From positions 5,591 through 69,590 of the forward strand of contig CAYZYT010000002.1 of NCBI GenBank assembly GCA_964482725.1: DNA of 64,000 bases, in the 5' to 3' direction. This DNA is from an uncultured bacterium. GTDB lineage: Bacteria; Omnitrophota; Omnitrophia; Omnitrophales; Aquincolibacteriaceae. The notes beneath the pieces are model-generated. The model did no database searches and was not told the DNA's origin. It worked only from the letters and a program-made list of their open reading frames with translations. Both the position numbers and the translations under genes were made by a program. This document shows positions 1-61,821 of the stretch, in pieces. Position 1 is the stretch's first letter; each line of letters begins with the position of its first letter.

Positions 1-3000
1 TTTTTACAGATCGGTAACAGACGGAAAAGATCCGACGTATCAGTGGACTAATCCCGTCAATTCCGACGAAAGTTGGAGCCTTGGGATCAATCGTCATGTT
101 CCCACGGGGGACGCCGGAACCCCGATCGGCCTGGAGGCGACTTTCTCGCACAATGTTCGCGTGACATCTTCCGAGGTGGCGACTGAGATCAATACGATCC
201 TGGATCCTCTCAAGAAGGCGGAGGCCGCTGCGGCTCTCGTTGCGGGGGCGGCGTTCTATCTGGCCCAAGCCGGTCTGGATGACGGTGTCTATCAGTGGTC
301 CAATAAAGCGAATCCCAGCATCAGTTACACCGTGACGATCAATGACCACGTGCCGACGGGAGAACCGGATGCGAACGGGAATTACGATCCAGCAAAATAC
401 AAAACCGAAACGATCTTTAATGTCAATACCCGGGTCAGCTTCCAGCAGATGCTCGGAGAGATTCCTCAGATCGCGGATGCGACGAAACGCGGCGAAGCAT
501 ATCTGTCGCTCTTTGATGCGGATGCCTTCTACCGGTCTAAAGCAGGGAACGATGATCCGAGTTATCAGTGGTCAAGCAATAAGGACCTGAACGCCAGTTT
601 TACGCTCGCGGTCAACCCGAGGCTTGGGATCACGTCCTTTAGCCGCTCGAAACGGGTGAGCAAAGAACAAGTCGCCGTTGAAATTGCCGTCATGAGCAGC
701 AACTATGATTCGGACAAGGCTGCGCTCCAGGCCAAGATCAATGCGCTTCCGGCGAATGACCCGAAGACTGCCGCGCTCACCGCGGACCTGGCCACACTCA
801 AGGCTGAATATGAGGCTAAGCTGAACCGGATCAATACCGCGCTCGCGGATGGGAAGAACTTCTACAAATCGCAGGCCGGGAATGACGAGCCGTCGTATCA
901 GTGGTCGAGCCTCGCGAACAAGAATGTGAATTACACTCTTTCCGTAAATAGCAAGATCCCGGTCGGGGAAGTCCGTCAGGACGGGACCTATGCAAGTTAC
1001 CGGACGGAGCTGACGTTCTCAAAGAGCGAACGTGCAAGTCTGGATGACGCGAAGCTTCAGGCGGGTCTGATCCGGGATGCCAAAGACCGGGATGATGAAG
1101 CGCTTAAACTCTTGAATGATCAGGGCAATCTTGGCCTCCCGGTCTATCGGACTCTTACGGACGGGGAATCCGTGTCGGATTATCAGGACTACACGTATCA
1201 GTTCTCGGATCTCAATAATCCCGACAAGAGCTACACGATGGCGGTCAATTCGTTCGCGATCGGTGGGAAAGAAGCGATGTGGAACGTGAGTCAGCGAGTG
1301 AAACCGGCCGATGTGGAAAAATATATTGCCGACAGCTGGTTCGCGGGCGACGCGAACGATCCGAAGCTTCAGGCTGCGCTGGCGGCATTCGCGAACGGCG
1401 AAGCGTTCTATCTTTCTTACGCTGGTGAAAATGATAATAAGAATTTTCAATGGACCAGCAAGACGAATCCTAACGTCAGTTATACCCTGAATGTGAAGGA
1501 TAAGCCGAATCCTGTGACCGGGATCAACTGGCATGAAGCAACGTTTACGCAAAGCAGTCGTGTGAGTCGCGAAGATGTTATGAAACGTTATGATTATTTG
1601 AAAAACACCGGGGACAGCCGCTACACAAACCTGGAAGCGGCCCTTAGGGACGCGGACGGGGTTCTGGGGGTCGGGATCTTCTATAAGTCTCAGGCCGGGA
1701 CGGATGATCCGAGTTTCTCCTGGTCCAGCCGCTCGAATCGGAACTTGAATTACAGCCTGTCCGTTAATACCAAGGTGGGTGTTGGGATCGCGGTGAATGG
1801 AGTTTACCCCAGCTACAGAACCGAGGTAACGTTCTCGCGCAACGAGCGGGTGACCCTTGCTGAGGCGCGCAATCAACTGGCTCTGATCGGCGACCTTTCG
1901 GATCGCCAGGAGGCCTCCGATGCAATGGATCAAAGCGGGGTTTCGATCTACAGATCCTTGACGGATGGGGAATCCGCCACGGATTTCCTGGATCCGACCT
2001 ATCAATTTGCCGACATGTTGAATCCGGATAAGAACTATTCGATCTCGATCAAGAGCGGGATTCCTTCGGGCATTCCGGTGAATGGGGTTTATCCGTCGAC
2101 AAGGACAGAAGCGACGTGGAATGTGAGCGAGCGGATCGCTCGTGAGCAGGTGGAACAGCACTTGAACGCCACCTGGATATCGGATCCCGATAAGCTGGCG
2201 GATGCCCAAACGGCATGGCTCGACGGTGAGACTTTCTACATGTCCTATGGCGGACAGAATGACAATGTGACGTATCAGTGGACCAGCCGTGCGAACCAGA
2301 ATATAAGCTGCAGTCTCCTTGTGAAAGATAAGGCGAATACGGTCACCGGCGTGAACTGGCATGAAGCGACTTTCAATCGCAATCAGCGCGTTAGTAAGGA
2401 AGAGGTTGAGGCCGGGGTTGCGAGCTTGACCACGAATTACAATGCCGAAAAGAGCCTTCTCGAAACAAAGATCTCTGAGACTACCGGAGCCGCGAAAGCA
2501 GCGCTAGAACAGGAACTCACGGCGCTTGAGTCCGACTATGGCAAGCGGAAGGACGCGATCGATAACGGCCTTTCGGACGGCAGGCTTTTCTACCGATCCC
2601 AGTCTGGCAAGGACGAACCTTCGTTTCAGTGGTCGAGTGAGACGGACCGGAACCAAAGCTACAGTCTTTCTCTCAATGCAAAAGTTCCCGTGGGTGTAAA
2701 GAATCAGGCCGGAGCGTACACCTCCTTTAGGACCGAAGTGACGTTCACCACGAATGCCCGGGTTAGCACGGAACAAGCGGTTGCGCAGGCGCAACAGATC
2801 GGCGACCTTCCCGATCGCGCGGAAGCTTTTGCGGCGCTGGGTTGGGATGCGGTCGCTCAGAAATTGACGCTCAACGGGATTGCGGTTTACCGCGCGATCT
2901 CGGATGGCGAATCTCGGTTGGACGGGATCGATCCCACCTATCAATTTGCGGATGCCGTCAATCCGGACAAGAGTTATTCCATGAGCGTGAAGAGCGGATT

Positions 3001-10900: not shown

Positions 10901-13900
10901 CACGTGATGACTGCGGAGTTGCCGGCGGCTTACAGCGATAGTCGGAAGTGGAGCTTCAGCGAACAATCTCTTGCGCTCAGGTCCGATGTGACGGCGCAGG
11001 CATCCCATATTCCCGCGGATCAGCAGCAACAATATGCCGATGGGTTGTCGGCGGCAGAAGTGGATGCTTCGACTTGTTTCACTAAGACCCTAAGCGGCAC
11101 GGACATCAGCTACAGCTGGCGTTCTCTCGGTGGCGTAAAGTCTTACACGCTCGGGATCGAGCAGCTGAAGAACGCGGCGGGGACCGTGCTAACACCCGCG
11201 AAATGGGCTATGAGCGTTCAGACACGTGTGCAAAAAATCGAAGTGGAGAAGCACGCCGCTGAAATGGAAAGTCAGTATGGCGTACCCTATCTGGATGCGC
11301 TCGATCTGAAAGCTGACGGGACCCCTGACGAAACGACGGACGATGTGGATGGTACGACCGTTTACACGAAAAGCGAGAGCGGGACCGATGTGACCTATAG
11401 CTGGAAGAATCTGGATGAGACGGCGACCTACACCTTAAGCCGCAGTCGTCTCATGCTCTCGGATACGAACGGCAATCTGGTGGCGGGCACGCCTCAATAC
11501 AAGTGGACTTTTTCGCGGCAAGTTCAGGTCACAAAAGTGTTAGCGGCCGCCCATGCGGCAAAGATCGAGAACACGGCGGTGAGAGCCCAATACAACGAGG
11601 CCTTGGCCCAGGATACGGATACCGCGACGGATTACACGATGAGTACGAGCGGTGCGGACAAGAGTTTTTCATGGAAATCAAAAGCCGGCGGTAGCACTTA
11701 TTCGCTTTCGATGACGATGACCCCCACGCAGCTTGCGAACGGGAATTGGGCAACACGGCCCAAATGGCAGTTCTTAGCTTCCTCGCTGGTGCTTCTCTCG
11801 GACGTGGAGAATCTTGCGAGCAATTTCGAGTTTCCCGAACAGCAGGTCCAATACGAGGCTTCCCTGAGCCATGATCCCGTAAACGGACGGACGGATGATT
11901 CGACAGCGTATACAAAGACCGTGAGCGGGAATGAGACCTCCTACAGTTGGAAAGACAAGAACGGCGTTACGACGTATACAGCTTCAAAGTCTTTGACGGT
12001 GACTTCGGGAGCCACCCGCTGGAATTTTTCGGCATCGGCTCTGGTTTTGCAGACTGAGATCCAAACGCACCGCGCTGATCTGAACGACCCTGAGGAGCTC
12101 GCGGATTTTGACGCGGCGGTGACGGATGTTGGCGGCTTCACGGAATTCACCCGTACCACCAGCGGAAAAGATGTTTCTTATTCCTGGAAAGGATTGGAGG
12201 ATAAGAAGCTTTATTCTCTCGGACGAAGTGTCGTGTGGGAAAAGCAGGCGTCTACCTATGTGAAACTGACCGGTGATGTGACCGATGCGAAGGGCGATGT
12301 TTATCACGCGATCTTCAAAAGCAGTTTCAGCACGCAGATCTACGTAACATTGAGTGAGCTGACGGATCGTGTGGCTCGTTTGATCGATCCGGATCAGGTC
12401 GCTCAGGCGGAACCCGCGCTGTCCGCAGTGACTGACGGATTGACCGAGATCGTGAAGACGACCTCCCAGGCAGGCTCGGAGGTTTCCTATAGCTGGAAGA
12501 GCGGGAGCGGTGACGTGGCGTATACCCTGACGTTCGGAAAGCAGTGGGAGAAACAAGCCTCGACTTATGTTCCTGTCTTAGGCGATATCACCGACGCAAA
12601 GGGGAATGTCTACCACGCTCTGAATAAATGGAGTTTTAGCGAACAGACCCTGGTTCTCAAAAGTGAAGTTGAGGGCCATGTAGACGACCTTGAGCTCGCG
12701 CAGCAGGGCCAGTACACGGACGCTCTGAAATCGCCGGCAGTCAGCAATGCCACGGCCTATAACAAAACGACGAGCGGTATCGATGTTAACTATAGCTGGC
12801 AATCAACCGACAAGATTTCAGCCTATACGTTCGGGTATGGGCGAGTGTGGGAGGCGTCGAGCGCTACGGCCGGGGACTGGGTCTATAAGTGGAACTTTTC
12901 GTCGCAGGTCCGTGTCGCGAAAAATGCGGTGCCGGCGACCGTGAAGGGTCTGGCGCCCGAGGAGCAAGCGGCGCTTACGGCGGCATTGAACGAACCTGAT
13001 CCGCAGGGTCTTATCGTTTATACGCTCTCGTTGAGCGGGACTGACAGGACGTACAACTGGCAGTCGGCGGATAAGACGATGAGTTATGCGATTACGGATG
13101 TTGAAATTTGGCAGGCGGATCCGGCGAAGGCGAACGGCGGGGATTGGATCCGGAAGTGGAGTTTTACGTCGCAAGTTCGGGTGGCGAAAGGGGGGGTGCC
13201 GGCGACGGTTGCGGGATTAACGGTCGCGGAACAGACAGCGCTCACGAATGCTTTGAGTGAATCCGATCCAAGCGGTCTTATCGCCTACACGATGACGACC
13301 AGCGGGAATGACGTCAATTATACCTGGCAGTCGTTGAACAAGCATGTGAATTACACACTCTCGGATCAGCAGGTCTGGCAGGAAACGAATGCTACAACGC
13401 ATGTCGGGGAATGGATCCGGAAAATGAGTTTTTCATCGCAGGTGCGCGTAAGTTGGGGGTATCTGGATTCGATCCGTGATGCGAATTATCTGAAGATGAC
13501 GCTTGCGGAACAGAGGGCGATCGATCAGGCGCTCGGGACGGTGGATCCTGAAAATGCCTGGCGGGTTTACACGATCTCCGAAAGTGGTAATGACAAGAGT
13601 TACAGTTGGCAATCGGCGGACAAGAAGATCAATTACACGTTCTCGGACCAGGAGGCGTGGCAGGCGGATCCGGCGAAGACGAACGGCGGGGATTGGGTGC
13701 GGAAACTGAGCTTTACATCCCAAGTGCGAGTGGCAAAGAGCGTGGTGCCTGCGACGGTCGCAGGATTAACGGTCGCGGAACAGACCGCGCTCACGAATGC
13801 TCTGAGTGAATCCGATCCAAACGGTCTTATCGCCTATACGAAGACGACCAGCGGAAATGACATCAGCTATACCTGGCAGAATAAGGACAGGAAGATCAGT

Positions 13901-16900
13901 TACACGTTCTCGGACCAGGAGGCGTGGCAGGCGGATACCGCGCGATCGAATGGTGGAGACTGGGTTCGGAAGCTGAGCTTTTCGTCGCAGGTGCGGGTAA
14001 GTTGGGGATACCTGGATTCGATCCGTGATGCGAATTATCTGAAGATGACGCGTGCGGAACAGACGGCGATCGATCTTGCTCTCGGGACGGTGGATCCGAC
14101 CGATCCTCAAATGAATTATGCGATGAGCGCGAGCGGTAATGACAAGAATTACAGTTGGCAATCGTCGGACAAGAAGATCAGTTACACGTTCTCGGACCAG
14201 GAGGCATGGCAGGCGGATCCGGCGAAGGCGAACGGCGGGGATTGGGTGCGGAAACTGAGCTTTACATCCCAAGTGCGAGTGGCAAAGAGCGTGGTGCCTG
14301 CGACGGTTGCGGGATTAACGGCCGCGGAACAGACCGCGCTCACGAATGCTTTGAGTGAGTCCGATCCCAACGGTCTTATCGCCTACACAATGACGACCAG
14401 CGGAAATGACATCAGCTACACCTGGCAGGATAAGGACAGGAAGATCAGTTATACGTTCTCGGACCAGGAGGCGTGGCAGGCGGATACGGCGCGACCGAAC
14501 GGCGGAGACTGGGTTCGGAAGCTGAGCTTTTCGTCGCAGGTGCGGGTGAGTTGGGGGTATCTGGATTCGATCCGTGATGCGAATTATCTGAAGATGACGC
14601 TTGCGGAACAAACGGCGATCGATCTTGCTCTCGGAACGGTGGATCCTATGGATCCTCTGATGACTTATGCGATGAGCACGAGCGGTAATGATATTAGCTA
14701 TAGCTGGCAGGATCGCGACCGGAAGATCAATTACACGTTCTCGGACCAGGAGGCGTGGCAGGCGGATCCGACGAAGGCGAGCGGCGGGGATTGGATCCGG
14801 AAGTGGAGTTTTTCTGCGCAGGTCCGCGTGGCGAAGGGCGTGGTGCCTGCGACGGTCGCGGGATTAACGGCTGCGGAACGGACCGCGCTCACGAATGCTT
14901 TGAGTGAGTCCGATCCCAACGGTCTTATCGCCTACACAATGACGACCAGCGGAAATGACATCAGCTATACCTGGCAGGATAAGGATAAGAAAATCAGTTA
15001 TACGTTCTCGGACCAGGAGGCGTGGCAGGCGGATACGGCGCGGCCGAACGGCGGAGACTGGGTTCGGAAGCTGAGTTTTTCGTCGCAAGTGCGGATGAGT
15101 TGGGGGTATCTGGATTCGATCCGCGATGCGAATTATCTGAAGATGACGACCGCGGAGCAGACAGCGATCGATCTTGCTCTCGGGACGGCGGATCCGATGG
15201 ATCCTCTGATGACTTATACGATGAGCACGAGCGGTAATGATATTAGCTATAGTTGGCAGGATCGCGACCGGAAGATCAATTACACGTTCTCGGACCAGGA
15301 AACGTGGCAGGAGACGAACGTGACAACGCACGCGGGAACTCACGTTCGAAATTGGAGTTTCACGGCACAGGTCCGCGTGGCGAAGGGTGTGGTGCCGGCG
15401 ACGGCCGTGGGATTAATTGCCGCGGAACAGACCGCGCTCACGAATGCTTTGAGAGAGTCCGATCCCAACGGTCTTATCTCCTACACGATGACGACCAGCG
15501 GAAATGACATTAGCTACAGCTGGCAGGATAAGGATAAGAAGATCAGTTATACGTTCTCGGACCAGAAAACATGGCAGGCGGATACGGCGCGGCCGAATGG
15601 CGGAGACTGGGTTCGGAAGCTGAGTTTTTCGTCGCAGGTGCGGATGAGTTGGGGGTATCTGGATTCGATCCGTGATGCGAATTATCTGAAGATGACCCCC
15701 GTGGAACAGACGGCGATCGATCTTGCTCTCGGGACGGTGGATCCTCATGATCCTCTGCTGACTTATACGATGAGCACGAGCGGTAATGATATTAGCTATA
15801 GTTGGCAGGATCGCGACCGGAAGATGAATTACACGTTCTCGGACCAGGAAACGTGGCAGGAGACGAACGTGACAACGCGCGCCGGAGCAATGATTCGGAA
15901 GCTGGCTTTTGCGTCCCAGGTGCGAGTGGCAAAGAGCGCGGTGCCGGCCACGGTCGCGGGATTACCGGCCGCGGAGCAGACGGCGCTCACGAATGCCCTG
16001 AGTGAATCCGATCCGAACGGTCTTATTGCATACACCTATTCGGTGAGCGGGAATGACAAGAATTACAGCTGGCAGGATAAGGACAGGAAGTTCAGCTATA
16101 CGTTCTCGGACCTGGAAGCATGGCAGGCGGATACCGCGCGACCGAACGGTGGAGACTGGGTGCGGAAGCCGAGCTTTTCGTCGCAAGTCCGGGTGAGTTG
16201 GGGTTATCTGGATTCGATCCGCGATGCGAATTATCTGAAGATGACGACCGCGGAGCAGACGGCGATCGATCTTGCTCTCGGGACGGTGGATCCGAATGAT
16301 TCTCTGGTAACTTATACCTTATCGTTGAACGGTAATGATATCGGTTGCAGTTGGCTGGACCGGGATAAAAAGATCAGTTACACGTTCTCGGACCAGGAAG
16401 TGTGGCAGGCGGATTCCACGCGGCCGAATGGCGGGGATTGGGTACGGAAATCAAGCTTTACATCCCAGGTGCGAGTGGCAAAGAGCGTGGTGCCGGCGAC
16501 GGTCGCGGGATTAACGACCGCGGAACAGACGGCGCTCACGAGTGCCTTGAGTGAATCCGATCCGAACGGTCTTATCGCGTACACCTATTCGCTGAGCGGT
16601 ACCGACCAGAGTTACAGCTGGCAGGATAAAGATAAAAAGGTTAATTATACGCTTACGGGCCAGGAGATATGGCAAGCAGATCCGGCGCGGCCGAACGGCG
16701 GGGACATGATTCGGAAGTGGAATTTTGCGACGCAGATCCGTATGAGTTATGCCTATATTTATGCGCAGTCGCAGGATGCAGCGGTGCGCGCGCAGTTGAC
16801 GGATACGGAGAAGAACGCTCTTGATGCGGCGGTAGCCTTGGGCCTGAACGATCCTTGGGTGACCTACACGATGGCGGTCAGCGGCACGGATACAAGCTAC

Positions 16901-43900: not shown

Positions 43901-46900
43901 AAATTTTCGACATTTATGCAGGTTCAGGCCCGGGATCGGGCTGGGAAAGTTGTGGAAGCGGGTTTGTACTTGAACAACCAAAGGGAGGTCGTCGGATTGA
44001 TCTCTGCGGCTCAAGGAACCATGCTGGCCGCAAATATGCTGATGTCGACCCATGAGTTGATCCAGACCGTATTTTTTAAGATCGGCGGGATCACTTATTC
44101 CCCCTGGTTGCCTGGTATTTTGCAGACGAGGGACGCTTCCGGACAATTGGGCGCTTACGATATCAAGACCCGGGAATATGCCGTCGTGGAAGCTTATGAT
44201 CCCCAAAAACACGGAACTGCTTCGTTTACGCATCCTGGCGTTAAAAATCCGATCACGCTCAAAGCGGACACGGTCCTTTTCTTTAAAGGGAAAACGCTGG
44301 CTGAAAACCGGCTGATCTTCCTGAGTAACGGTAATTTTGTTGCTTTCCAGGTGGGGACGGTCCTCCAGACGCTTTATGACGGAAATTATCGCGTTCAACT
44401 GGAATCGGGTTCCTGGTACTCCATTGCGGAAAAACAAGGAACCGAATATGTTCCCATCGCGGGTTTGACCGCCGGGAAGGTCATGGTACCACTCTATGAA
44501 AAATCAACGACCGAGGCGGAAGCCTTGAGAGCGAGCCATGAACTTGGCGCCGGCCAATCGCTCAATCCAACGGCAAGAGACGGCTCGTCATTAGCTTCGG
44601 TCAAGAGTTACGGTCTCGCGCGTGCGTCTAAGGTTTTTGCCGACGCAACCGGGCGGACTGTAATCTTTTGCTCGAAAAATGAGTCCGGACGTTATGAAAC
44701 GATCGCTGTTTTTAACAATACTGAAAAACAGAGAAGCATTGGCTTTCTCAACACCGGCACCTACATCATCCAGCCGGTCCGGGGCGGTTTGTATGAATAT
44801 TACAGGGTGACCCCGGAGGGTTCGAGAGGGGCGTTGCTTGGCTATAGCCTGATCCAGGATCCGACCGTAACCGGGAGAATGGTCACGGATCCAAGGACGG
44901 TTGCCGGAATGGCGCGTGAGGCTTCCTTCACGACCACGGGGACCAAACGTACCTTGGACCTCAGAGGGGCAACCGCAGTACTTGTATTTGGAGATGCGAA
45001 GCCCGGAAAGAATCAAAACGAGAAAATATGCACTGTCTTTTTGGGGCCTGACGAAAGAGGCGTAACCGGTGTCATGGCGGTCTTTGATGGCCGCATGCCC
45101 GAGCTTACTAACCCGAATCGCGCGGGGGTCCTTGCCGCCCAGCTTCAATATGCTCATATTGGAAGCACCTTTTATACAAAGGCTTTAACTTCGACGGATG
45201 GTGTAGTGCTTTCAACCTACAATGCCGCCACCGGACGCACGGAATATTTTGGCGTGACGAGCGCAGGCATGGGCGTCGAGGCGACCCAGCTCAATGCGCC
45301 TGAAAACAGGTCTTTCTCGGATTTCCTGAACACGGAACTGGGACGGGTGTTTGCGGGCGAGGGGGTTCACACCAGCGCAACTGCGATGCTGATCCGTTTC
45401 GGGAAGACGGAAGCGGTATTGGATCCTGCCCGGACGGATAACGAACTGGTTTACTCTAATGTGTCTCGTGGGGAAAATTATCGAGTCGTGACCTATGTTT
45501 CTGACCGGGGATATGCGTATGCCGAAACCTACGAAAAGAAACCGATCCGGTGGGATGCTCCGAGTGGCGCCAGGAATGTAAACACGAACGTCCCGGACAT
45601 GCGATCGCCGAGTGTCCTGATCGATACACTGATCAGTGCCATCACGAGGGATCCTTCAGGAAAGATCGTGCAGGCGTGGATCTCGCAAACGCCGGGACAG
45701 TATTACGGGGCTGAACAGATCCGCGAATCGACACGGTACTCCGGAATTTCCTTCATTGAATATGCGAAGGACCAATGGGTCAGCCTGAGTCCGTGGGAAA
45801 CCGGTGTGAAGATCTATTCGGAAGGCACCAAGATCCACGAAGTATACAGCGGCAAATTCGTAGCGTTCGGGGAGGTTCAGATCAGGGAGATGACCGTCAC
45901 GTACGATCGCTTAAATCCCAATCGTCCTGAGGCCTACAAATTTGACATTGCGTGGAGTGTTGCTCATGACGTGGAATTCACTGTGAATGACTTGATGAAG
46001 ACCGGAATGGCTGCAACGATCAACTGCCAGCAATTCGGCGGGCCCAAAACGGAATTCGTTACGTTCTCGATCAATCGTGACGGAATGATCACAGGGCTTT
46101 CGCAAATGAACGACGAGGAGTTTTCAGATGCAGCCCTCACTTATGACTCGACCGGTGTTTTGAGCACGATCGACACTCATTCTTCGTTCAACCGCCTGGA
46201 AACAAAGTCTTTGGATTACTTCGACACCTACGGACAATTCGTCCGAAGCGAGGAGTATTTCACGAACAATATCACATGGACGGAACTTTCTTTAGGCCAG
46301 CAAGTGACCGCCATCGGTACCGGTGTTGCAGCCGTAGCTGCCGCAATTGCGGTAACGGCATTTACAGGGGGAACGGGCGTTGGGGTTTTTGGATTGGTAG
46401 GAGGATTAGGGTGGAGTGCGACAGCGGCTATTGCGGCTGGCGGTGTCACTGCTCTCGGGATCGGCGCGACGATGTATGTAAGCGGTCGCGTTGGCGGTGT
46501 TTATGGCTGGCAAGTGGGTGGACAAGCCGGAATAGCGGTGGGTGCTGTGATGGTCCTGATCGCTTCCGGCGGTATTGGCGGCACAGGCTGGGTCGCGTGG
46601 GCCGGCATGGGTGGCATGGCGTGTTATGTGACTCATTTTGGTTTGACTGAATTCATGGGCGTTGATAGGGACAATTTAGCCATGAAAGCTCTTGATCTTG
46701 CCGGCATGGTGGGCATCTGGACCGGGGTTGGCGCTGCTTTGTGGAAAGGCATGGTCGGGAAGGTCGGGGCAACGGCCATCGGTCGTTATCTGACGCGTAA
46801 TTTCAGCATAGAAGCCGGGGAACGTCTGGCGGTTGCCGAAGGCCGGAATGTCGCGGCAATGGGAGCTAATAAATTTACAAGATCGTTTAATTTGACAAGA

Positions 46901-49900
46901 CTGGCATTCGAAAAGAATTTCAAACCCGAAGTCCTCAACTTAAGTTTGCGTTTGTGGGACGCGACGCAATTAGTTTCAATAAAAGCAGCCTTGGCAAGTA
47001 TTCCGGTGGTTACGATGGATACCATTCTGGGAGGTGCGGTGATTGCGGTCATCGCGGCTTTCTCGATCCAGTTCCTTGCCGGTAACAATCTGACCATGGC
47101 GGAAAAAGGAGCGCTTGTCGGCGTTGCGACTGCTTTAGGGCTCGCACTCAGCTATGCCATTGCCCGAAATGTTAGTGCCTATGCTTTGGGACGCTGGACA
47201 ATGACCATGCAAAAAGCGCTTACGAAAGAAAGAAGTCTTGTTCCTTTCCGGACAATGAGAGATGCGGTTAAATCTTTCGCTCCAAGCGCAGTATTTAAAG
47301 GTTCTTCCTATGCGGGTTTTCAGGAGGTTTCGAATTGGGCGATTGGCGCTGGTATCGCAACGTTTGCCGTAGGCCAAATGATCGATTCGCAAGAGCTCAA
47401 GTTTGTTGGACTGGTCATCGGCGCCGGAGCTGCACTGCCGCGGATGTTCCTCTTTTTCTTTGGAAACCCAATTGCCCTTATGAACAATAAACCCTGGACA
47501 TTCAGCCAGGTCGCGGCCGGACTCGGCATGCTGTCGGGTTGGTCTGGTGTGATTGTCGCGTACGGGGGATGGAAGACTGGATCTGAAGATTATAAATCCT
47601 TGGGCAAGGCCCTGATCATGGCCGGATTTGCCATGCGGGCACTGGCCGGGGCGATCGGTGGGGCTACGGTTTTTGGACTTAAAGGTGAATTAGATCTCGG
47701 CCTGATGGCAGGATCCAAACTAAATGCGACATTCCTGCTCAAAGTTCCCGGGGAAACGGTACTCGACAGGCTTTGGGCTCAAGGAGTTAAAAGCATCTTA
47801 TTCTTCCGGTTCTTCGGTATCGCACAAGCGGCTTTTGGGATCGATCATATGGTGGATGCGATCGCGTCTTCTCTGGGGTACCAGACCCCGCTTCTCGCGG
47901 GCGATAAAAATGATCCTGATGGGTTGGCAAAAGCCGGCTATTGGAAGCACCTCGGCCAGGTTCTTGCCAAAGAGCTTGGCATTGGAAGAAACGTTTTTCA
48001 GCAGGGCGGCCTTCTGGATGTGGATCGTCTGGCCCATGACTTTATTCTCGGGTTCCTGATGCATCATGTCGGGATCACGTACCGTGGAGGCACGGGCTTT
48101 CTTAAGACGTTGGGAGAGAAACAAGGCGTGGTTAAATTTGTGTGGAGTTCCTTGAATCCCGCATCCTTTGAGAGAAGGTTGGCGGCAGGACAATCTCAGT
48201 CGCTGGGTATGGCGGCATTCCATTTTGCGGACAACATGCTTATGTTCAATCTCGTAGTCGCGCCGCTCCAGGCTTGGGCAACCCTTTATGGAAAAGAAGC
48301 CGCAGCAGAAAGCTCTTACCGCCAGCAGATCCTCCAACTCGGAGAGATGCTTGGGGCTTATTTTATGATGCCGCTCTCCGCGGTTTTTGCCCTGACCGGA
48401 AATACAGCAGATGAAAAAAAGTTCGTGGGCGATCTCAACTCCTTTGGCATATTCCTTGTCCCTCAGCACGGAGGCCGGTTCGCGTTGGATTACTTTATGC
48501 AGGAATTACGCGGTGAATCCACCAAGCAAATGGGCGAAAGAATCGGCGGCGAAAGATTGAGTGAAGAGAAAAAAGCCAGCACGGAATGGCAAAGAGACCT
48601 CGGAACAAGCATCATGGCGGAACGCTTGAATGATCTGGCACGAACAAATCCTGAATACGCAAAACGCATTATGGTAGATCTGCAACAGGTCGGAACTTTG
48701 CAGAGCCTCGCTGATCGTGCCAATGAAGCGCCTCTTGGAGTCAACGAAGCGGTCCGTCTGCTCGCTTCCGGTGATCTTGGCAAGAGCGTGGATCTTATGT
48801 TCAATTCCAAAGCGTTAGGGATCTTCGTCCAGGATCTTGGCGCAGAGCTTTATCGATCCGTTGTCTCCCGGGAGGTTGAGGGCGGTTTGAAAGACACGTC
48901 GGCGGATCAGGCTACTAAAAATATGAGAGTCGCGATCCTGAACGGGGCCAAGGACGGAAGAAAGATCTCGGAAGTTTGGAAAGACCCCGATGTCGGGGGA
49001 GAACTGGCGATGCCCGAAGCCTGGAGATCAGCGGCCGATCTTGTGATCACTGCAAGTCTTCGACCGATCGTGGCCTCCCGGTTATGGGAATTGCAATCAA
49101 AAATGGCTGAAGGCCTATTCAAAGAACTTGGGATATTCAAAACGAACGCTCTGAGCGGTCGTACGGATGCGACCTTTACCTATGACGGTTACAGACTTTC
49201 GAATGAAGGCGTCAAAGCCCTGTCCATCGCGGCGGGCGGGAATAAGGATTATGTCGGTTATGCCAGAGACTACATCCAGCGCAGTACGTTGGCGGGGATG
49301 AAGGATCGAGCCCTTGCCGAAGCCTATGAGAAGGGTGGTTTTGATATCCTTACGTCCGATCAAAAAATGCTATTCCTTACCGAGTACTCCACGGCGCTCA
49401 AGGATCTCTTCAGACCTCTCACGGAAAGTGAGCTGGGCCCCGGATTCCTAAAAGCGATCCTGGGCGTTTATGTAACCGAAGTCCTCACAAGGGCTTCGGA
49501 TATTATGACCGAAGGATTACGAGACGGGAGCCTGAAAATCGAGGATGGCTTGATTCGCACCAAAGACGGCGCGGAAATAGACCTGTTTAAGAATATCAAA
49601 CTCCGGGAGGACCGACTTGCTACGACCGGAAAAGACGGAACGTCCGAAGAGCAAAGACTGATCCGTGCGATGCTCGCCGGCAATGAATTGCAGAACAGGA
49701 TGATCACCGAATTCACGAAAAAGATCTCGGACCAATACCAGGCGGTTTTGATGGCGAAAGATGATGTCTCTCTGGCTGCTGCCTTGACAGCGCTTTTCGG
49801 ATCCGCGGAAAATGTGACCGAGATCTGGGGCATGCTCAATGGGCTTCGGGCCCGCTTTGAGGCGCTGGGCCTCGGGGAGATCTTCAGGAGCGAGGCGGGA

Positions 49901-52900
49901 GATTTCCTGGCATCCCAGATGTTGGGTCAGATCAACGAAGGCAAGAATGTTTTTAGTCCGAAAGCTTTGTATGCCAAGACCGGGGAGGGCGATGCAGCCA
50001 AAGTCACCGGGATCCTTGCGAACTACAAACGGCTTGCAGAGAATGTCGACAATGCCAAGAACAGGGATCTTTATAAACTAACGGAAGACGTTGATCCCAT
50101 GGTGAAGCTATTGATCGATGGAGCGTTTGATCAGATCGGCCCCATGATCATCGCGGAACTGAATCGGATCAGATCAGGAGGCATGCTTAGTTTTAAAGAG
50201 AGAGAATCTTTTAACGGTATCTCGGAAGGAATTGTTAACGAAAATGGCGAAGTGATACAGACGAACAACATTTTCATGGTTTGGAAGAACAGCCTCAAGA
50301 CGGGGTTGGCAGATCGGCCGGCGGTTCAACTGCTGGAGGCTGTCGTGGCGAAACTCCGGGCGGATGGCAAAACTGAAAGAGCGGCGGAGCTTGAGGCGAA
50401 AAGAGAGGAATACGAGTCCAAGGATCAGACCGCTCAAAGGACCGACCTAAGGGCTTCTCTTATTACTGAACTGGCCAAGCTTTATTTTGGAAAATTCCTT
50501 GATTTTGCCAAGACGATGGTCGCGAACGGCCCGAATGGCGGGCGTTTATTTGCCGAGACTTTTGCGGACAAATCCCTCCGTTTCGACCTGATGGATCCTC
50601 TGAGCGCTCTTTCCGCCGGGGATTCGGTCCGGTCGAATCTCGAGCTTTTGGCTTTCGCGAACGCAATGTGGGAAGCGAAGGGGTGGTGCGTCACAATCGA
50701 ACAGATCGACAGTTTCATGAAAGCCAAGACCGGCCATATCAACGCCGCGATGGGCGCCGGAAAAACGCTGGTCGGCGTTGCCCTGATCTCTTCGGAAAAT
50801 ATCGGGATCGTCCTTGTCCCGAATTCTGCGCTGGCGCGGAATATGATGAACGGTCAAGACTTTCTCTCAGTCATGTCAGGCGGCACCAAGAGCTTTGTGG
50901 ATGGGATCGCTCTTATCGAGCAGATCCGGAGCACGGATATGGCGGTTTCAAAAGCGGCGCTTGAAACATTCCTTGGGTATCTGGAAGCCAAGGACAAAAC
51001 GGCGATTCTTGTGACAGACCGGGACTCTTTTGGCCATTTGAAGAATTATCTTCATACCAATTCTCATCGCTATGGAGAGCTGCGCAAGGAATACAATTCC
51101 GTCTATGAGCGGTTTGAAAGAGCCTATGAAGCGAATAAGAAGCTCATGGATGAGATCCATCAGTGCGCCAACCCGATGTATTTTATCATTGGCGGCGATC
51201 CCATCAAGGCCGGCGAATCAATGCCGAATTATCGGCTGTTAAAGACCATTGCGGATGTGCTGGGAGGTGTGGGAGAGGACGGGAGACCCGATGTAACACA
51301 ATCCCTGATGCGATACGAAGGGGATAAGGATTACGATCCGGCAAGGCACATCCTTGTTCTTGAAGAAAATTCAGCGAACACCCGAATGCTCCGGGAGCCC
51401 GGATGGAAGAACCGTGCGGTTGTGCTTGTTCGAAACAAGGAATTTGTGGCCTGGTCCAATTATGATGCGATCAAGAAGGTTCTGAGGAGTGACCCACGGA
51501 TCATGGCGGAATGGGATGCTGTCGCCGGAAAAGCGACACCGCTTTATTCCTCGGAACTTGCTTCGATCTTGAGAGCGTTGGTGATCCGGTCTTCCGATTT
51601 CAGCGCCATTCTCACAATCCTTGGCAATCAACTCGGCGTTGACGGCGGACAATACCGGCCGCGCAGTTTTGAAGGCAAGCTCGAGACAAACCAGATCATC
51701 GAGGATACGGCCTGGTTGATCGGCGTACGGAGTCTCGCAAACAGTGCGCTGCATGTAAAGGAAATCGGCGGAAAGAGATTGACGGATGAACAGCGGACGG
51801 AGTTAAAAGAAGTTGTTCGAAGTCTCTATCTCCGGAACCGGAGAGCCGACGAGATCCGGAACGGCGAATCCCGAGATGCCGAGTATCACCTCGAAGTGAC
51901 TAAAACCGTCACGGCAGTCAGTATGTATGACCTTTTTGCCGGAGAACGCAGTTTTGGTATGTCCGGGACCTTGCTGGAGGTCCAGATCCCGATCGAAGTC
52001 CTGAGCGGCCGCAAGACAGGCGTAGTGACAACGGAGGGGGAAACGCTTTCCTATCTGACCGAAATGTACGCCTCCTCGAAACACGGCATGAATCAGCGGC
52101 ATAGCTTTAAGGTTTATGACCAGTTCGGAGGAACGTCGCGTGTCGATCTTGCGCTGGCCCATTATTCCGGAGAGCGAGCGCCGGGAATGGAAAACCTTGC
52201 GATTAAATTCACCAAAGGCGCTTCCACGCTTGTTGGATATGGCAATGACGGTTCCATGATGACCGATTACAAAAAAATTATGGAGCGAGGGTTTGTTGAC
52301 GGCTTAACTCATTCTGCCATTCGCGATTTGTTGCAGGTGAAGAATAGCTATGATGCTAAAAAGAGTGCATTGGAACGAGCTTCTCCGGCGGAAAGAACCG
52401 CGTTGGAGGCAGAAGTTGATGCGCTGAAAAAAACTTTAGATTTAAAATCAGCGGAAGTTAAAAAGCTAAATATCGTTCTTAAGATCGACGGCCGGTTGGG
52501 AGATGAAGGCATCAACAGTGTTGACGGTGTGAAGAAAATCTTCAATGCTTTAAATGAGCTCAATGCCAAGGTTCTTTTGTTGACCAATTCGCGCGGTTTG
52601 ACGGGCGTGGACTACCAGGCCACAGCCAACTTCCTTCTTTTTGCGGGAAGCTTCACAAATGCCCAGCTTATGCAGGCGATCTGGCGTATCGGTCGTACGC
52701 GAATGGATGGAAACCGGTGGGAAAGTCATGCCGCGGTTTTTGTGGATGAGGCACGTTCCGAGGCCCTGCTCCAGAGTCTGAGGGTTCAGGATCCTGCCAA
52801 GGGAACTTATGCAAGTATTGATGCTTGGACGGATTATTTCCGGACCCGGTGGGCGGATGCGCGGACCCGGACCGGGCTTATCTTTGAAGGCTCGGACGGC

Positions 52901-55900
52901 AGACAGAACAGCATCTTTGAGGTTCTCGAGAAGGTCCGGGATGGCGAAAAACTTACAGCCGAAGAGACGCTTTACCTTTCCACCATGATCAACACGGCCG
53001 AGGCTTCGTCGAAGACCGCCAAGTCGCTTCTGGAACAATTGATCACGTTCCGCGTGATGATCGATCCGGTGAAGGCCGCTTATCACCGGGCGCTTGGACT
53101 TGGCGATCAGCAGGCGGCCGATCTGATCATGAAGTTCGGTGAACATTTGCATCGCCAGTTAAAGAGCGATGTCGGATTGGAATATTCTTCGGATTATACA
53201 AAGGGAGACGCTTACGTCCGTTCAGTCTTGCGTGAGCGTGCCGACACGATCGCCAATGAGCTTTCTATGTTCCTGGATGGCGTCGTAACGAAAAAAGGAA
53301 TGGTTCTGGATCCCGAGACTTCTGGGAAGGGAGCAATGCTTCGGCCGGAGATCCGGGAGATCCTGATGGGTGCCAAGGTCCAGGCCAATAAGATTCTCGA
53401 CAAATTGACCGATTACAAGGATATCGAGAGAAAGACAGATGCCGCCCGCGGCGTTGCTCAAGGGGACTTGAACCGTCGCACGGATCTCTCAGCCTCGGAT
53501 AAGGCGGAGATCCTGATCAAGATCTCGCAGCAATTTGCGATCGACATTTCGCCCGAAGCGTCCAGACGAAGTCCGACGCCGGAAGCCATCCAGCGTATGA
53601 AAGAACAGAATACGTACAAGGTCAGCAATGAAGCGACCGAAGGTCTGCGGAAGAACAACGCCGACGTTTTTGATAAGGTGGCTCAAGCGGGCGGTTCGGA
53701 GAACCTCTTCTATGAGCGCAATGCCGGAGAGACCACAGGGACCTGGACATTGCTGGGGCAGACGTTGAACATGACCGAAGTACAGCTGCCGTCCGCTGTG
53801 ACCGCCATGGCGGAGATCGTGGGCGTTCTTTCGATGATGCTCAATGCGGACGGGTCGATGTCCCTCGCTCCTGCGCTGGACTACGCGGTTGACAAGAATC
53901 CGGCGCGACTCACACTTAGCGAAGAAAACTGGAAATGGAGCAAACAGCGTTCCCAGGGATTGGGAGAGGTTGTGGCTCTGTTCAGTGATTCCACAAAAGT
54001 TAAAGGGCTGTTGCAACTTCAGACCTTGCTCGATCAACTGGATGGATTTACAGCAACAGACCGGAGTATCCTGATGGAAACCGCAAGCCTGAAAACCTCC
54101 GATTTCGGAGACATGCTCAAACTCCTGAAGGGGACAAAAGGGTTCAATGAACGCCTTAGAGTGATTGCGTTTTATCTACCCAAGCTTGGGAATGATGCAC
54201 AAACGGAACTGGCACGACGCGATTCTAAAGATCTGACTCTTTTGACGCAGCTTAACGAACAGGTTGGCAACCTCAAAAAGATCGCCCGGTTTATCGCAAA
54301 CTATGTGCCGGAATTCAGCGGTAGCGTCACTGAATTGACAGGGGTCAACCTGGTACAGGTGTGGCTCGCACTCAAGACCGTAGATCAGGAGATCAATGCT
54401 CAAAGTGCTGCCGCTCGCAAAGATCCAAAACAATTTGCAAAAGCGATGCTTCCGATCGTGCTCAAGACGGCCATTCTCGGTTCTGAGGCCGTGAATCTCA
54501 AAAAGCGTCAAGCTCTCCTGAAAAAGACCCTGGAAAAAGCCGGTCTTCTGGCGATTGCGGATGCGGCCATGGAGCCCGTTGAAGGCCTTTCCACGGAAAA
54601 TGGTGATATCCTGGCTCTTGTGGCTCAGTCCGTACTTTTGCAGCGCGATTTCCAGAAAGGCTTTTCGAGTATCCGGGAACGGCTTACCATGATCCACGAG
54701 CTTCAAACGACCGGTATGACCCCTGAGGATAAAGAAATCCTTTCCATAGATCGCGTGGCCAATCTTATCCAAAATAGTCACTATACAGAAAATGATGTCA
54801 AGCAAGTGATCCGCCTGGCCAAGGAGTTAAACTCGAAAAAGATCCGTTATTCTTCCGCGGATGATGTGATCGAGCTTTACAGACAGGGAGTTCGCGAAGC
54901 CCAAGTGGCCGGAATCCTGAGCGCGACCGAGGAACAAGCCGACATCCAGATCAAAGACGCTTCGGATATCATCCAGATCATCCATGTGTTCGGTCTCGAT
55001 TTCTCTGGAGTGGAAGCGGGGATCGCTTACTTGAAAGAGAAGATCCGTGATCCCCAGTTTGTTAGATCTGCAGCCGCAAATCATTTCCTTAAACCGATCC
55101 TCGATGCGACCGGAGCTGTGACCGGATTTGAAGTGGTGGATTTGACGGGGAGGCGTCGCGGCTTACTCGACGGCCTTTCAGATCTCCAGGACATCAAAGT
55201 TCAATATCGCGGCGGAAATTGGATCTTCCGGAGCAGCAAAAAAAGCGACTTGCAGAATAAAGATTTGTATGTAGAACTGAATGCCAAGCGATTGGAACAG
55301 CGGGTCTATGACCATGACCAGGTCGCCGTCACTTTGATCCGCGAAGGAACCGAACTTCTGATCCACGGAGTATCTTTTAATGGCGGACAGCCACTTCGCC
55401 TGGATACATTCACAAACGCGACGGCATTCCGTACTGGTTGGCGCGATGTTGAGGGCGGGCGCGTTTTTGAGATCCGCGCAGAAGGGGACAAAGGAATCGA
55501 TATCGGTCGCGTCCAACTCATCTTCGATCAGAACGGACACCTCGTTCAGGCGGATCAGCAGAACCGTCCGGGGCAGGAGAACGTTCATCCTGAGGTGCGT
55601 GTACTCACGCCCGGTGGCCAAGAGCTTCTGGTTCTTCCCGTAATGCCTGAGATTCAGCGTGTGGGGACGGACGGCGTCACTTACGTCCTTCGATCGCAGC
55701 TTCCCGGTACCCAGGCAACCCCGGAATTCAAAGTACCGTTCACAGGTACCGTGGATCTCGCAACCGTTCTTCCTTTCATGAAGGATCTGATCGAAGCATC
55801 TCAATTTGATGCCAATATTGATCCCACGGTTAGCGGCGAAGATCGTGCGAACAGGAGAACGACTTCCTATAAGCTCGGAATTCTTTTTGAATTAATGATG

Positions 55901-58900
55901 AATCTTGACGCCGGCGCAAAATCCAAGCTTATTGCGTGGTGGAAGGAAAACGGTGTGACACAGACCGGTAACGAAGTCACGCTGATCCAGGCGATCAAGC
56001 AACTCTTTTCGGGAGATACTGCCGCTCTTGTGACGATTGAGGCTCTCGAACAGCTTGTTTCCCAGAGGATCCGGGATCAAAAAGAGCTGGAGTCAATGCT
56101 CCGGTCTGAAAAAGCGTTGGCGCAACATGATGGTTCCAAAGCTGATGCCAACGACCGGGCTTATCGCGTTGCCGCGGCGGCCTCCCGGTTGCAGTCTGAT
56201 TCGCCAGAATACGCCGCGATTTTGGACGCGTTTAAGGTTGCTTTCTTGGACCAACATCCAACGATTACCGAGAGAGATCTGGTTCTGGACTCCGTTTATT
56301 CTCTGGTGATGGACCAGATGTTCGGCAAAGGCACCGACGTTCCGGATAATGTCATCAAAGCCAAGCTGCAAGCTCGAGAGATCAAGAAAAAGGAAGAGCA
56401 GAAAGAGGAGCTCAAAAAGGAGCTTTTGAAATATTTGCAATATCGGACGGATCTTAAATCTGCGAGTATCGATGAGCTCTTGGGATTTTTCAACGATCCG
56501 AAGGTTTTGGAACGTTTGGATGAGGATCAAAAGGCCTTGTTGGAGCGTGTCCGCCAGAAAAAAATGTTCGTCGATTTTATCAAGGCCAATGCTGGGAAAA
56601 TCTCCGAGCAAACGATCCCGGGAATCCTGGACCCATTGAAGTCTGAGATGGTCCGTGATTTTGTGGATGCGGCGCCGTTCTGGGACCTTTTCCAGTACGC
56701 CCGGAATTACTACTTGGCGGATGCGAATCATAACGAACTTTTGAAGATCCAGAAAAGCACGACACTTTCTGTGGACCAGAAGGCCGAGCAAATGGCGGAA
56801 CTTCTGGCCGAACAGATCTCCCAAAACCAGGATACAACTCGCGGCGTAAGCAAGGATAACCGTGACATCCTCAAGACGAAACTGAAAGAACTCCTGCGTC
56901 GCGGTTTTGAGAAAAAACCCGGGGACGAAACGATCCGGGATTATGTCCGTTTTGAATTTGACCGAGGTTCCGAACTTGCTAAGCATGTAAACGCGCCGTG
57001 GCGCCTGAACCATGGCTACCGGGACATTCCGGTCGCTGCATTGATCTTCTATGGGGATGCGGCCAAAGAACTCGAACATGCCTGGTATTTTCTGGGTAAT
57101 GATTGGGGCCGGAATTCTGGTTCTGAAGTGATGATCGCAAAAGAGTTCAAAGGCAGAGGAAAAGGTCAGGCTATTTTTAGTCAGACAGGGTTGATGCTGA
57201 TGGATGAGCGCTGGTACAAGGCCTCGATCCCGCACGAAGAACTGCACTTGATCTATCCAAAACCGGCGCTTCTATGGCCGGACGCGGATCCGCAGGTCGA
57301 AGAAATCATGAACTATATGGCTCAGGTTGAAATGGACCTTTACGACCGTGAAGAAGGTCGCAAGTATGATCTACAAAGGCTCTTTGCAAAGATCGAGCAG
57401 TATGCCCGAAGCGCTCAGTTTGATACGCGCAAGATGCAGGCCGCGGCCAAAGCCATGCTGTATTTGCTGGAAGCGACAGGAGATCTTGATTTCGTCAAGA
57501 ACGTGTTGCGGAATTCCGAACATCTTGAAGATATGATCGCGTGGCATTATTTTGACAAGGTTGAGATCGCAGGGATCCGCGAACGCGCCAAGAGCGGTCT
57601 CACAGCGACCGGATCGGCCAGCGAGTGGAAGGATTTTATGAACGGTGAACGGGCTGCTGCGGTCGATGAAGTCCGGAAAATGCCACAAGTCACGACTGAA
57701 GAAGCCAAGGCGAAGCGGCTGGATGCTATTTTATTCGAAAAAGTACAGGCCTGGCAAAAGCGGCTCGGGATTATGCCGGATTCCGAAATTTCGAAAACCG
57801 TGATCCAGGCCTCCGTTCCGGCCCTGCGTCAAGATTGGTACGGAGCGGCCGGGATCCAAAATTACAAGGCAGATGCGAGCCAGGATTTTACCGCGATCTT
57901 CAAAGAAAATACGCCGGGTTATCAAAAGCTTTTTACCGACTTGAAGAGCCTCCTTGAGATCCCGGGGCAGAGCTTTGATACAGCTCAGGCGGAAGCCTAT
58001 ATCGTCAAAGTATTGGGCCCTGCGTGGACAGTTCAAAAGGATCCAAAGAGCGGCGTCCTGTATCTGGAACATGTGCTCAGCGAAAAGGGTAAAGAATCCT
58101 ATGCGTTCTCGGCCCACACGGACGTGGTCCGTGAAGTGGATGGTGCCGTGGCGCCTGTGATCGATTCGTTGGGCGTGGTGCGGAATAGTAATGCGAATTC
58201 CGCGCTCGGTGCGGACAACCGGGCTGGGATAGCGATGATTCTCTCCCTTGTGGGGGATGCGGATTGGGTGAAGCAATTGCAAGCTTCAAATCCTGAGCTG
58301 CATTCACTCAAGATCTTCTTTTCCAACAGTGAAGAGGTCGGCAAAGGGATCCTGGAGATCCTGGACAATATGAAGCTCCGTCAGCAGTGGCTTGGCAATG
58401 TAACCGAAGTTTTTGCTTTTGATCGTCAGTCCGGAACCATCGAAAAACGAAAAGCCAAGGATATTTCGGGAAAAACTTATGATACGGGAACTTTGGGGGA
58501 GCATGCCGAAGTGTTTGTCCCGGCGACGAAAAAAGATATCAAAGGAAGCCGCTATGTCAAAACGCTGAGTGATGCAGCCGCTGCAATGAACTTGCCGAGT
58601 TTGGCGATCTTCAACGGATTTACGGCAGGGACTCAGGAAAGCGAAAACCAGAACGGTGATTTTGCCAATATGCTGGCAGTCCAACCGGATCCGGAGAACG
58701 GCACGATCAGGAGCGTTATCAATTTTCATGATGGCAGCACGAATGCTCACGAACGAGGTTTCGAAAACACGGATCTCCGAACCCTTTCGGCCATGATCGA
58801 ACTGGCAAAAAAGACCATTAGCTCTATTGCGGCGGCAGGGCCGATCGAGGAGGTTGCCGAAAAGGTTGAGGCCGGGCCAGAAAGACGTGCGGAGGAAAGG

Positions 58901-60121: not shown

Positions 60122-60168
60122 CGTTTCGTACTACCTAAAAGATCCTGAAAAAAGATATAATAGGACCC

Positions 60169-61374: not shown

Positions 61375-61821
61375 CTATTTAAGGCGCGCCTTAACGGCTT
61401 CCTGGACACGCTTGCCGTCGGCTTTACCCTGAATGGTCGGCATAAGGACTTTCATAAGCTTTCCCATATCGGCGGAACTTTGGGCGCCCGACACAGCAAT
61501 AGCGCTTTGAACCGCTACCCCGAGCTCCTCATCCGTCAACTGCTTCGGCAAATAAGCCTCAAGGATCGCCAGCTCAATTTTCTCTTTATCCGCAAGATCG
61601 TTACGGCCCGCTTTCTCAAAACTGTCCATGCTTTCCCGGCGCTGCTTGGCCTGCTTCGTAATGATTCCAAGAACCTCGGCGTCCTCAGCCTTGTCCTTTT
61701 TGATCTGGATCAGATAGTTCCCAAGGGCGCTTTTGAGCATCCGCAAGGTCGAAACCTTGACAGCCTCCTTAGCCTTCATTGCCGTAATAACATCTTTTTC
61801 GATCTGTTCCGCGAGGCTCAT
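61375..61821 (-). CDS. yqeY: GatB/YqeY domain-containing protein (148 aa).
   Basis: MSLAEQIEKDVITAMKAKEAVKVSTLRMLKSALGNY… is the canonical YqeY N-terminus. AAGGAG RBS 10 nt upstream of the ATG on the - strand. Confidence 0.85.
   Translation of the reverse strand: MSLAEQIEKDVITAMKAKEAVKVSTLRMLKSALGNYLIQIKKDKAEDAEVLGIITKQAKQRRESMDSFEKAGRNDLADKEKIELAILEAYLPKQLTDEELGVAVQSAIAVSGAQSSADMGKLMKVLMPTIQGKADGKRVQEAVKARLK

Follow-up and report, generated by a model that had tools for sequence, protein, structure and literature searches.

A single reading frame of more than 20,000 codons

The 64,000-nucleotide (nt) stretch of DNA analysed here (the window: positions 5,591 to 69,590 of contig CAYZYT010000002.1, assembly GCA_964482725.1, from an uncultured bacterium) is dominated by one giant open reading frame (ORF; 2..60121, plus strand), which counts 20,039 codons followed by TAG and whose 5' end is cut by the window edge. 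Plus-strand frame 2 runs free of stops from nt 2 to the TAG at 60119-60121 (60,117 nt), with the remaining two plus-strand frames carrying 810 and 932 stops over the same 64 kb. The 59,961-nt ORF with which the preliminary description had worked is the one found in the mechanical ORF list, where it starts at a GTG at position 161; the frame is already open before this codon, and the first residues of the protein (aa 1-54; residue i corresponds to nt 2+3(i-1)) match only positions 38-93 of the 93-position hidden Markov model (HMM) of the repeat unit described below. Since the window opens in the middle of a repeat unit (the GTG at 161 sitting within the array), the true start lies upstream, as had been suspected; an exact 40-mer taken from the 5' end of the window had no match in JGI metagenomes. 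The coding signal was found to be uniform along the whole frame: the GC content at third codon positions (GC3) stays within 0.56-0.68 in every 3-kb bin of the ORF (0.52-0.63 in the flanking genes), the codon usage of its three thirds correlates pairwise at 0.78-0.88, and scans for tRNAs, Rfam families and tandem repeats (period <= 500) revealed nothing that interrupts it. Taken together, these observations identify one genuine protein-coding gene of at least 60 kb that starts outside the window, which agrees with the earlier claim of a single gene longer than 60 kb; that it is a genuine giant membrane-protein gene of the Omnitrophota we regard as very probable.

Two compositional peculiarities of the window were also recorded. 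Minus-strand frame 1 contains merely 256 stops over the whole window, with open stretches that reach 670 codons; this scarcity is a shadow of the codon bias on the plus strand and no evidence of antisense genes. Furthermore, the strand-symmetrised tetranucleotide correlation with the downstream flank (60.1-64 kb) amounts to 0.29-0.43 in the repeat and lectin zones (0-36 kb) and to 0.64-0.74 in the C-terminal 24 kb. The contrast is probably an effect of repeat composition, a separate history for the two parts being conceivable.

Repeat arrays and the beta-rich zone

The protein opens with a main array (2..20254, plus strand; aa 1-6751) of 67 tandem copies of a ~93-aa alpha/beta module, which are arranged head-to-tail and follow the consensus ...TxSGxDxSYSWxS...YTLS...KxSFSxQxRV. 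What at first appeared to be two repeat families collapsed into one under an iterated HMM. Ten further units of ~81 aa (20624..22978, plus strand; aa 6875-7659), akin to the beta part of the main module, follow the array, so that the repeats with which the preliminary description had begun its series of domains are recovered by HMM across aa 1-7,659 (67 + 10 units). The youngest part of the array (12884..17335, plus strand) is recognisable as a 549-nt repeat (183 aa, two modules) in 7-9 copies, whose nucleotide identity (75-95%) is highest between neighbours. An AlphaFold2 model of a single unit, built with 57 internal copies as the alignment, reached a mean pLDDT of 91.8 and a pTM of 0.81. 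The predicted unit pairs a short strand and two helices with an antiparallel meander of four strands; searches with this model brought up no homologue of solved structure, and the main repeat matches no Pfam family. An 'antiparallel beta helix with external paired alpha helices' has been predicted in Omnitrophota giants (West-Roberts 2023, 10.1101/2023.11.21.568195), and the make-up of our repeat unit fits such a structure, as far as one modelled unit may indicate.

The arrays are followed by a zone of beta-rich modules (23855..32749, plus strand; aa 7952-10916), in which we distinguish two module types, D1 of ~157 aa with 10 copies and D2 of ~165 aa with 8-12; both lack a family match, and their profiles gave no significant result against the PDB. 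Within this zone lie two F5/8 type C (discoidin; PF00754) domains on the plus strand, the first (26069..26491) scoring 49.2 bits and the second (28145..28609) 30.6 bits against a cut-off of 28.2. As regards the lectins named in the preliminary description, these two domains stand above the Pfam thresholds, with some 20 further modules remaining without a match. The Pfam scan covered the whole ORF in chunks of 1,000 aa, and NCBIfam was scanned too; apart from the discoidin domains and peptidase T (PepT)-like signals near the C-terminus, both were almost empty across all chunks. Single-sequence PDB searches with the ATPase, C-terminal and YD-like zones likewise returned nothing.

The last of these zones is a Y/T/S/G-rich segment (32849..34711, plus strand; aa ~10950-11570) that resembles YD repeats by eye and lacks the support of any RHS/YD profile: no match to PF05593 or TIGR01643 was found in the Pfam and NCBIfam scans at E <= 0.01-0.05. 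The Rhs core motif PxxxxDPxGL is absent, and the matches to its DPxGL part are confined to the repeat array and to the second membrane cluster (see below). The 'YD shell' of the preliminary description is consequently not supported, there being neither an RHS/YD profile match nor a PxxxxDPxGL core.

Membrane clusters and the conserved C-terminal module

An A/Q/R-rich, helical (coiled-coil-like) stretch read from the sequence (34724..34951, plus strand) lies just ahead of transmembrane (TM) cluster 1 (35579..36271, plus strand; aa ~11860-12090), in which ~6-8 hydrophobic segments were counted. A middle region of ~3,300 aa (36299..46291, plus strand) separates it from TM cluster 2 (46304..48394, plus strand; aa ~15435-16131), which comprises ~10-14 such segments and whose second half is conserved in all relatives. 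The segments were delimited by a Kyte-Doolittle scan, which is not a trained predictor; on this measure the TM clusters announced earlier are present, and are two in number. The middle region has no family match (aa 12,100-15,430 being devoid of strong internal repeats as well), and from aa ~13,670 onwards it is common to the relatives.

At this point begins a conserved C-terminal module (41009..60118, plus strand; aa ~13,670-20,039), which is colinear with the members of a rare Omnitrophota family at 22-39% identity. A HMMER search with aa 16,800-17,700 against 1.84 billion representative proteins yielded 12 relatives (30-45% identity), mostly 4,400-7,200 aa long, which are colinear with aa ~13,670-20,039 of the giant protein and of which nothing aligned N-terminal of that. 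Sixteen further loci were recovered from genome and metagenome collections, all of them staying open as far as the retrieved DNA or the contig extends. The region of aa 16,000-20,039 has no direct Pfam match in the window protein and resolves once the relatives are aligned.

The first element to emerge in this way is a superfamily 2 (SF2)-type ATPase (50699..52771, plus strand) with the motifs GAGKT (nt 50753-50767), DEIH (nt 51149-51160), GMSGT, LTNSRGLTGVDYQ and QAIWRIGRT. The family alignment shows no variation at G41, K42, D171, E172, H174, Q679, R683 and R686, and motifs I and II fall in the N-lobe, V and VI in the C-lobe, as in SF2 helicase-like proteins. When family members were scanned singly, five of nine matched Helicase_C and four of nine ResIII; the family profile aligned with the C-lobe of Sth1 (SNF2) at E 4e-4 and, by hhalign, with Escherichia coli RapA at E 1e-4. 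A SecA identity, plausible by eye (DEIH..PMYFIIGG, GMSGT), was dropped after the Pfam and hhalign comparisons, in which SecA_DEAD (PF07517) matched neither the window protein nor 8 relatives and the family profile paired with E. coli SecA at a probability of 0.8%. The ATPase motif that had been noticed is thus retained (GAGKT plus DEIH) as one of generic SF2 type, and not detectably as SecA.

The best-conserved domain of the family (56639..57721, plus strand; aa 18,880-19,240) carries HEELH at nt 57233-57247 and EE at nt 57299-57304. The H, E and H residues, together with the EE pair 18 residues on, are invariant across 10 sequences, and the motif pattern is gluzincin-like, which would make this a candidate metallopeptidase-type domain; no match was found in Pfam or the PDB. 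It is succeeded by an M20-like (peptidase T-like) domain (57989..58831, plus strand; aa ~19,330-19,610) with conserved H-x-D, ADNRAG and EE motifs. The NCBIfam PepT-like match has an E-value of 4.8e-5 and reaches 22.5 bits where the family cut-off is 274, and the profile aligned with PDB tripeptidase/PepT structures (3rza, 1vix) at E 1.7e-7 in the N-terminal half only; the H-x-D, the bridging D and the EE are invariant, and the distal D/H ligands were placed by eye. A second HExxH (HENEH, aa 19,823; 59468..59482, plus strand) has equivalents, also recognised by eye, near the C-termini of relatives. The earlier report of peptidase motifs therefore holds in the form of one M20-like domain of PepT-like character (E 1.7e-7) and two HExxH motifs. 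One distant relative (P0005) has weak GNAT matches somewhere on its length, and the accessory enzyme (M20 in the window) may vary between relatives.

The module closes with a conserved tail domain (59810..60118, plus strand) that ends ...AVAQQSVATAA. Full-length relatives (the C-termini of P0002-P0011) all end in ...[V/S/I/T]AA or ASA, and the giant gene of a related strain, on a contig from the European Nucleotide Archive (ENA; L024, 6829-7137, minus strand), has the same final 11 residues (AVAQQSVATAA) as the window (60086-60118), with ~46% identity over the ~90 residues that precede. These AA endings resemble the C-terminal AA of ssrA-type tags. On a further contig (L020, 13825-15018, minus strand) we observed that a dissimilar convergent gene in the equivalent slot also ends in ...AQAIQSAA.

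Taxonomic affiliation and genomic slot

Three genes lie downstream of the giant ORF. The first encodes a 193-aa hydrophobic protein (60169..60750, plus strand), begins 47 nt past the giant stop and is present both on a Logan contig (L001) and on L024; it has about four hydrophobic segments and no Pfam match, and may be co-transcribed with the giant gene. The second, a YqeY-family gene (61375..61821, minus strand; Pfam 163.7 bits), marks the edge of a conserved flank, which continues with a BatB-like gene with VWA and TPR domains (61976..63949, minus strand). An identical copy of the BatB-like protein is found on a 231,491-nt NCBI contig (the sequence of the giant gene appears to be in NCBI already) and a near-identical one on L024; dozens of relatives are 85-92% identical, and all the named ones stem from Candidatus Omnitrophota/Omnitrophica metagenome-assembled genomes (MAGs). 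The C-terminal part of this protein (61976-62590, minus strand) is a low-complexity, K/Q/D/E-rich tail of ~190 aa; the close relatives align over ~72-75% of the query, which suggests that the tail is variable. For the giant protein itself, a scan of genome collections with the ATPase-region profile gave ten loci, the named ones all being Omnitrophota MAGs (groundwater, fen, Lake Baikal), and the sole database matches of the repeat zone and the ATPase zone are partial proteins from Omnitrophota MAGs. The attribution to the Omnitrophota, originally offered as a guess, is hence supported, both by the BatB-like neighbour (85-92%) and by all named relatives of the C-terminal module.

The block MoxR-DUF58-x-BatA-BatB-YqeY is common to relatives with ~82% nucleotide-identical flanks, and beyond YqeY the gene content varies: some relatives possess a WbqC/glycosyltransferase/radical-SAM cluster, one has small genes together with a different convergent gene, and the window and L024 have the 193-aa hydrophobic ORF and the giant gene. 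The window (60089-63959) and L024 agree at 94% of nucleotides in the flank, an identity that breaks down once the comparison has entered the 3' end of the giant gene by ~30 nt; the last 102 residues of that gene in L024 are ~46% identical to the window save for the final 11 (which are identical). Because a 94% identical flank adjoins a gene of ~46% identity in a slot of variable content, we argue that the giant gene is accessory, and is diverging or being exchanged far faster than its surroundings. Long branches and hypervariable regions have been described for Omnitrophota giants (West-Roberts 2023; Nielsen & Lui 2026, 10.64898/2026.06.07.730766), and the fast divergence of the present gene agrees with them. 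Genes resembling type II secretion (T2SS) or type IV pilus systems, reported near other giants (West-Roberts 2023), lie directly downstream of the homologue in the distant relative P0005; no type II secretion genes occur in the 3.9 kb downstream of the giant gene in the window. On JACPCP010000006.1 of GCA_016179745.1 (L003, 14150-23883) the genes that come after a C-terminal-module relative are a HepT/NTP-transferase pair, two response regulators and a cluster that resembles T2SS/type IV pili (T2SSE, T2SSF, pseudopilins, PilM/N/O and an F5/8C protein).

Interpretation and alternative explanations

We consider it rather probable that the protein, taken as a whole, is a membrane-anchored giant with a glycan-binding surface part and a conserved ATPase/peptidase base. 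Its first part (aa 1 to ~12,100) is variable and probably extracellular, and would consist of a rod-like array of 77 alpha/beta modules, then a carbohydrate-binding zone, the Y/T/G-rich segment, the helical stretch and the first membrane-helix cluster. Its second part (aa ~13,670 to the end) would be the rare conserved module, composed of the larger membrane-helix cluster and ~4,000 putatively cytoplasmic residues. These last ~4,000 residues are placed in the cytoplasm because an SF2 motor needs ATP, and the discoidin/repeat part outside because such domains usually are extracellular; with this sidedness the protein would be anchored in the cytoplasmic membrane, the fibre pointing outward and the enzyme base lying inside. 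On the assumption that the gene is translated as a single chain, the long variable fibre would probably bind glycans on the envelope of another cell and so mediate attachment by a very small cell, and the conserved base would anchor the giant and probably assist in its insertion, export, processing or turnover. We put forward this coupling of adhesion and engine tentatively, with a confidence that approaches even without exceeding it. A bolder proposition, which we deem rather improbable, is that the C-terminal ~6,400 aa form an undescribed, self-contained membrane machine that exports, anchors or remodels an exchangeable and hypervariable alpha/beta-repeat surface fibre. The parts of such a machine could be the polytopic membrane domain, the SF2 motor, the HExxH..EE domain, a swappable enzyme domain, the second HExxH and the AA tail, and if the proposition were true, the C-terminal unit would be a dedicated 'cis-acting' secretion/processing engine, distinct from Sec/SecA, type I secretion and other known systems.

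A number of observations weigh against the picture of a membrane-anchored giant with a surface fibre and an enzymatic base. The giant gene is known here from sequence alone, and its N-terminus (with any signal peptide) lies upstream of the window. The topology is drawn from a single hydropathy scan, and the middle 3,300 aa may lie on either side of the membrane, depending on the helix parity of cluster 1. The window's own ATPase stays under the Pfam thresholds (ResIII 18.9 against a cut-off of 22.5), and its AlphaFold2 model is poor (pLDDT 55, 9 sequences; Foldseek matches had E > 0.1 and were disregarded). The Pfam scans revealed neither glycoside hydrolases nor lytic domains, and an attack function is therefore not indicated. 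Finally, the conserved module of two relatives apparently starts as a separate ORF, and the single chain may fail to hold across the family.

This last point leads to the alternative that retains most weight, although we judge it unlikely: the gene may encode a polyprotein (one chain that is cut, perhaps by its own HExxH/M20 peptidases), or be a fusion of two units that are otherwise independent genes. The relatives have only the C-terminal third (aa ~13,670-20,039) in common, three peptidase-type motifs reside within this conserved part, and self-cleavage of giants has also been raised by West-Roberts 2023. Moreover, in the two relatives concerned (L006, 1-2087; L009, 1-2145) the ~6,000-aa homologue opens after an in-frame stop, with a large ORF upstream in another frame. 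On the other hand, the frame in the window is unbroken across the junction of the two parts, no cleavage site is known, and the upstream ORFs of L006 and L009 show similarity neither to the window nor to each other, so that the split could reflect a frameshift error in short-read MAGs. These upstream ORFs match no Pfam family and overlap the homologue by 175-370 nt; the arrangement could correspond to a split gene, to a programmed or accidental frameshift, or to an assembly error.

An artefact of assembly, in which a chimeric junction or miscounted repeats would have created or inflated the ORF, appears very improbable. The 3' end of the ORF is also covered by two public, independent assemblies: the Logan contig L001 (SRR12261223) is 100% identical to window positions 60043-63976 and spans the stop codon and the three downstream genes, and the ENA contig L024 has the same gene order as the 3' end of the window. 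Just the last ~80 nt of the ORF are thereby present in an identical independent assembly, and the continuity of the other ~59 kb is supported by one assembly. The copies of the 549-nt repeat are up to 95% identical over 300 nt and can be mis-counted by short reads, which makes the copy number of this array (nt ~12,884-17,335) the spot where the assembly could err; such an error would neither create nor remove stops. In tetranucleotide composition the 3' end of the ORF resembles the 3.9-kb flank (0.74) more closely than the repeat zones do (0.29-0.43), but such low values are to be anticipated when repeats of skewed amino-acid composition are compared with a short flank of low complexity. Against an artefact speak, furthermore, the 20,039 stop-free codons (which neither chance nor a chimeric join would be expected to yield), the smooth coding statistics all along the ORF, the fall of repeat-copy identity with distance (as in genuine tandem duplication) and the colinearity of the C-terminal 6,400 aa with independently assembled relatives.

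Least probable of all, and hardly to be entertained, is an RHS/YD-type polymorphic toxin or a giant protein of the Archaeovorin or Dockerin type, since the Y-x-Y-x-x-x-G spacing that seems enriched by eye at aa 11,000-11,570 is unaccompanied by RHS_repeat, YD_repeat_2x or Rhs core profiles or by PxxxxDPxGL, and the whole-ORF Pfam scan revealed neither dockerin/TSP3 domains (PF00404, PF18884) nor glycosyl transferase/hydrolase, methyltransferase or NUDIX domains.

Comparison with known systems

At the level of single domains, the putative motor of the membrane-anchored giant shares with SF2 translocases (SNF2, ResIII/Helicase_C) the Walker A motif GxGKT and DE[IV]H, and its motifs V-VI align with those of Sth1 and RapA; it differs from them in that ~260 residues are inserted between the lobes, and in that it is embedded in a membrane protein with no evident nucleic-acid-binding context. 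In a similar manner, the M20-like domain possesses the H-x-D, D (ADNRAG) and EE metal/catalytic motifs of the peptidase T/M20B tripeptidases, but aligns with them in the N-terminal catalytic half only and forms one domain of a giant chain. At the level of overall architecture, giant bacterial repeat adhesins (e.g. those of RTX type involved in ice binding and biofilms) are exported by type I secretion through C-terminal signals, are not polytopic and are built of Ig-like (BIg) repeats. The window giant has in common with these adhesins a long rod of small tandem domains with ligand-binding modules, as well as signs of recent tandem duplication; unlike theirs, its C-terminus would be a cytoplasmic enzyme module (if the proposed topology is correct).

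The closest resemblance is to the giant proteins of the Omnitrophota, which are described as membrane-anchored, largely extracellular, repeat-rich and fast-evolving, with a helicase-type domain (West-Roberts 2023; Nielsen & Lui 2026). The preliminary description had counted such genes among the largest known in prokaryotes and as mostly uncharacterised, which needs correction: two preprints catalogue them, one with 46 genes above 90 kb (proteins >30,000 aa) and up to 85,804 aa (West-Roberts 2023), the other with 5,761 Omnitrophota proteins that reach or exceed 10,000 aa, the longest having 147,155 aa (Nielsen & Lui 2026), and a protein of at least 20,039 aa falls in the middle of this range. 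With its 20,039 codons in a single ORF the window giant lies above the limit of 10,000 aa, and differs from the >30,000-aa set unless the part upstream of the window is long. Of the catalogued giants, 94% have membrane or signal-peptide features and 15% are without any Pfam match (Nielsen & Lui 2026). The window giant belongs to the same phylum and shares with them a single ORF of tens of kb that is mostly dark to Pfam, a long and dominant repeat-rich part, a helicase-type ATPase, peptidases, many membrane helices, fast divergence and a position in a variable region of the genome. It departs from them in the lack of a match to SecA_DEAD, a divergent form of which is reported in 'most' giants (West-Roberts 2023), and it belongs to neither of the two named subtypes, having none of the enzyme domains of the Archaeovorin type and no dockerin or TSP3 repeats. 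The signal peptide and the C39 or S8 peptidase that characterise the N-termini of these giants would fall upstream of the window. With the class 2 tandem-repeat scaffolds of Nielsen & Lui 2026 it shares the dominance of a single module (77 units) and a nucleotide tandem signal that has mostly decayed; that class is defined by Pfam repeats (TSP3, ConA-like, NHL, WD, HEAT), whereas the repeat of the window giant is unclassified and retains a visible young core of 549 nt.

Omnitrophota giants are thought to mediate the contact of ultra-small, host-dependent bacteria with host or prey cells, no mechanism having been demonstrated. The existence of such genes is already established and the size of the present one is ordinary for the phylum; what we regard as mildly new are the unclassified repeat fold, the conserved module without SecA and the sharp contrast in divergence between the gene and its flanks. 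To the known giants it adds a compact repeat module, modelled with confidence, that accounts for roughly one third of the chain and lacks a homologue of solved structure, as well as a rare conserved membrane/ATPase/peptidase module that defines a subfamily without a SecA-type domain; it also illustrates clearly how a giant gene can occupy a variable slot next to the conserved Bat-operon/YqeY genes.

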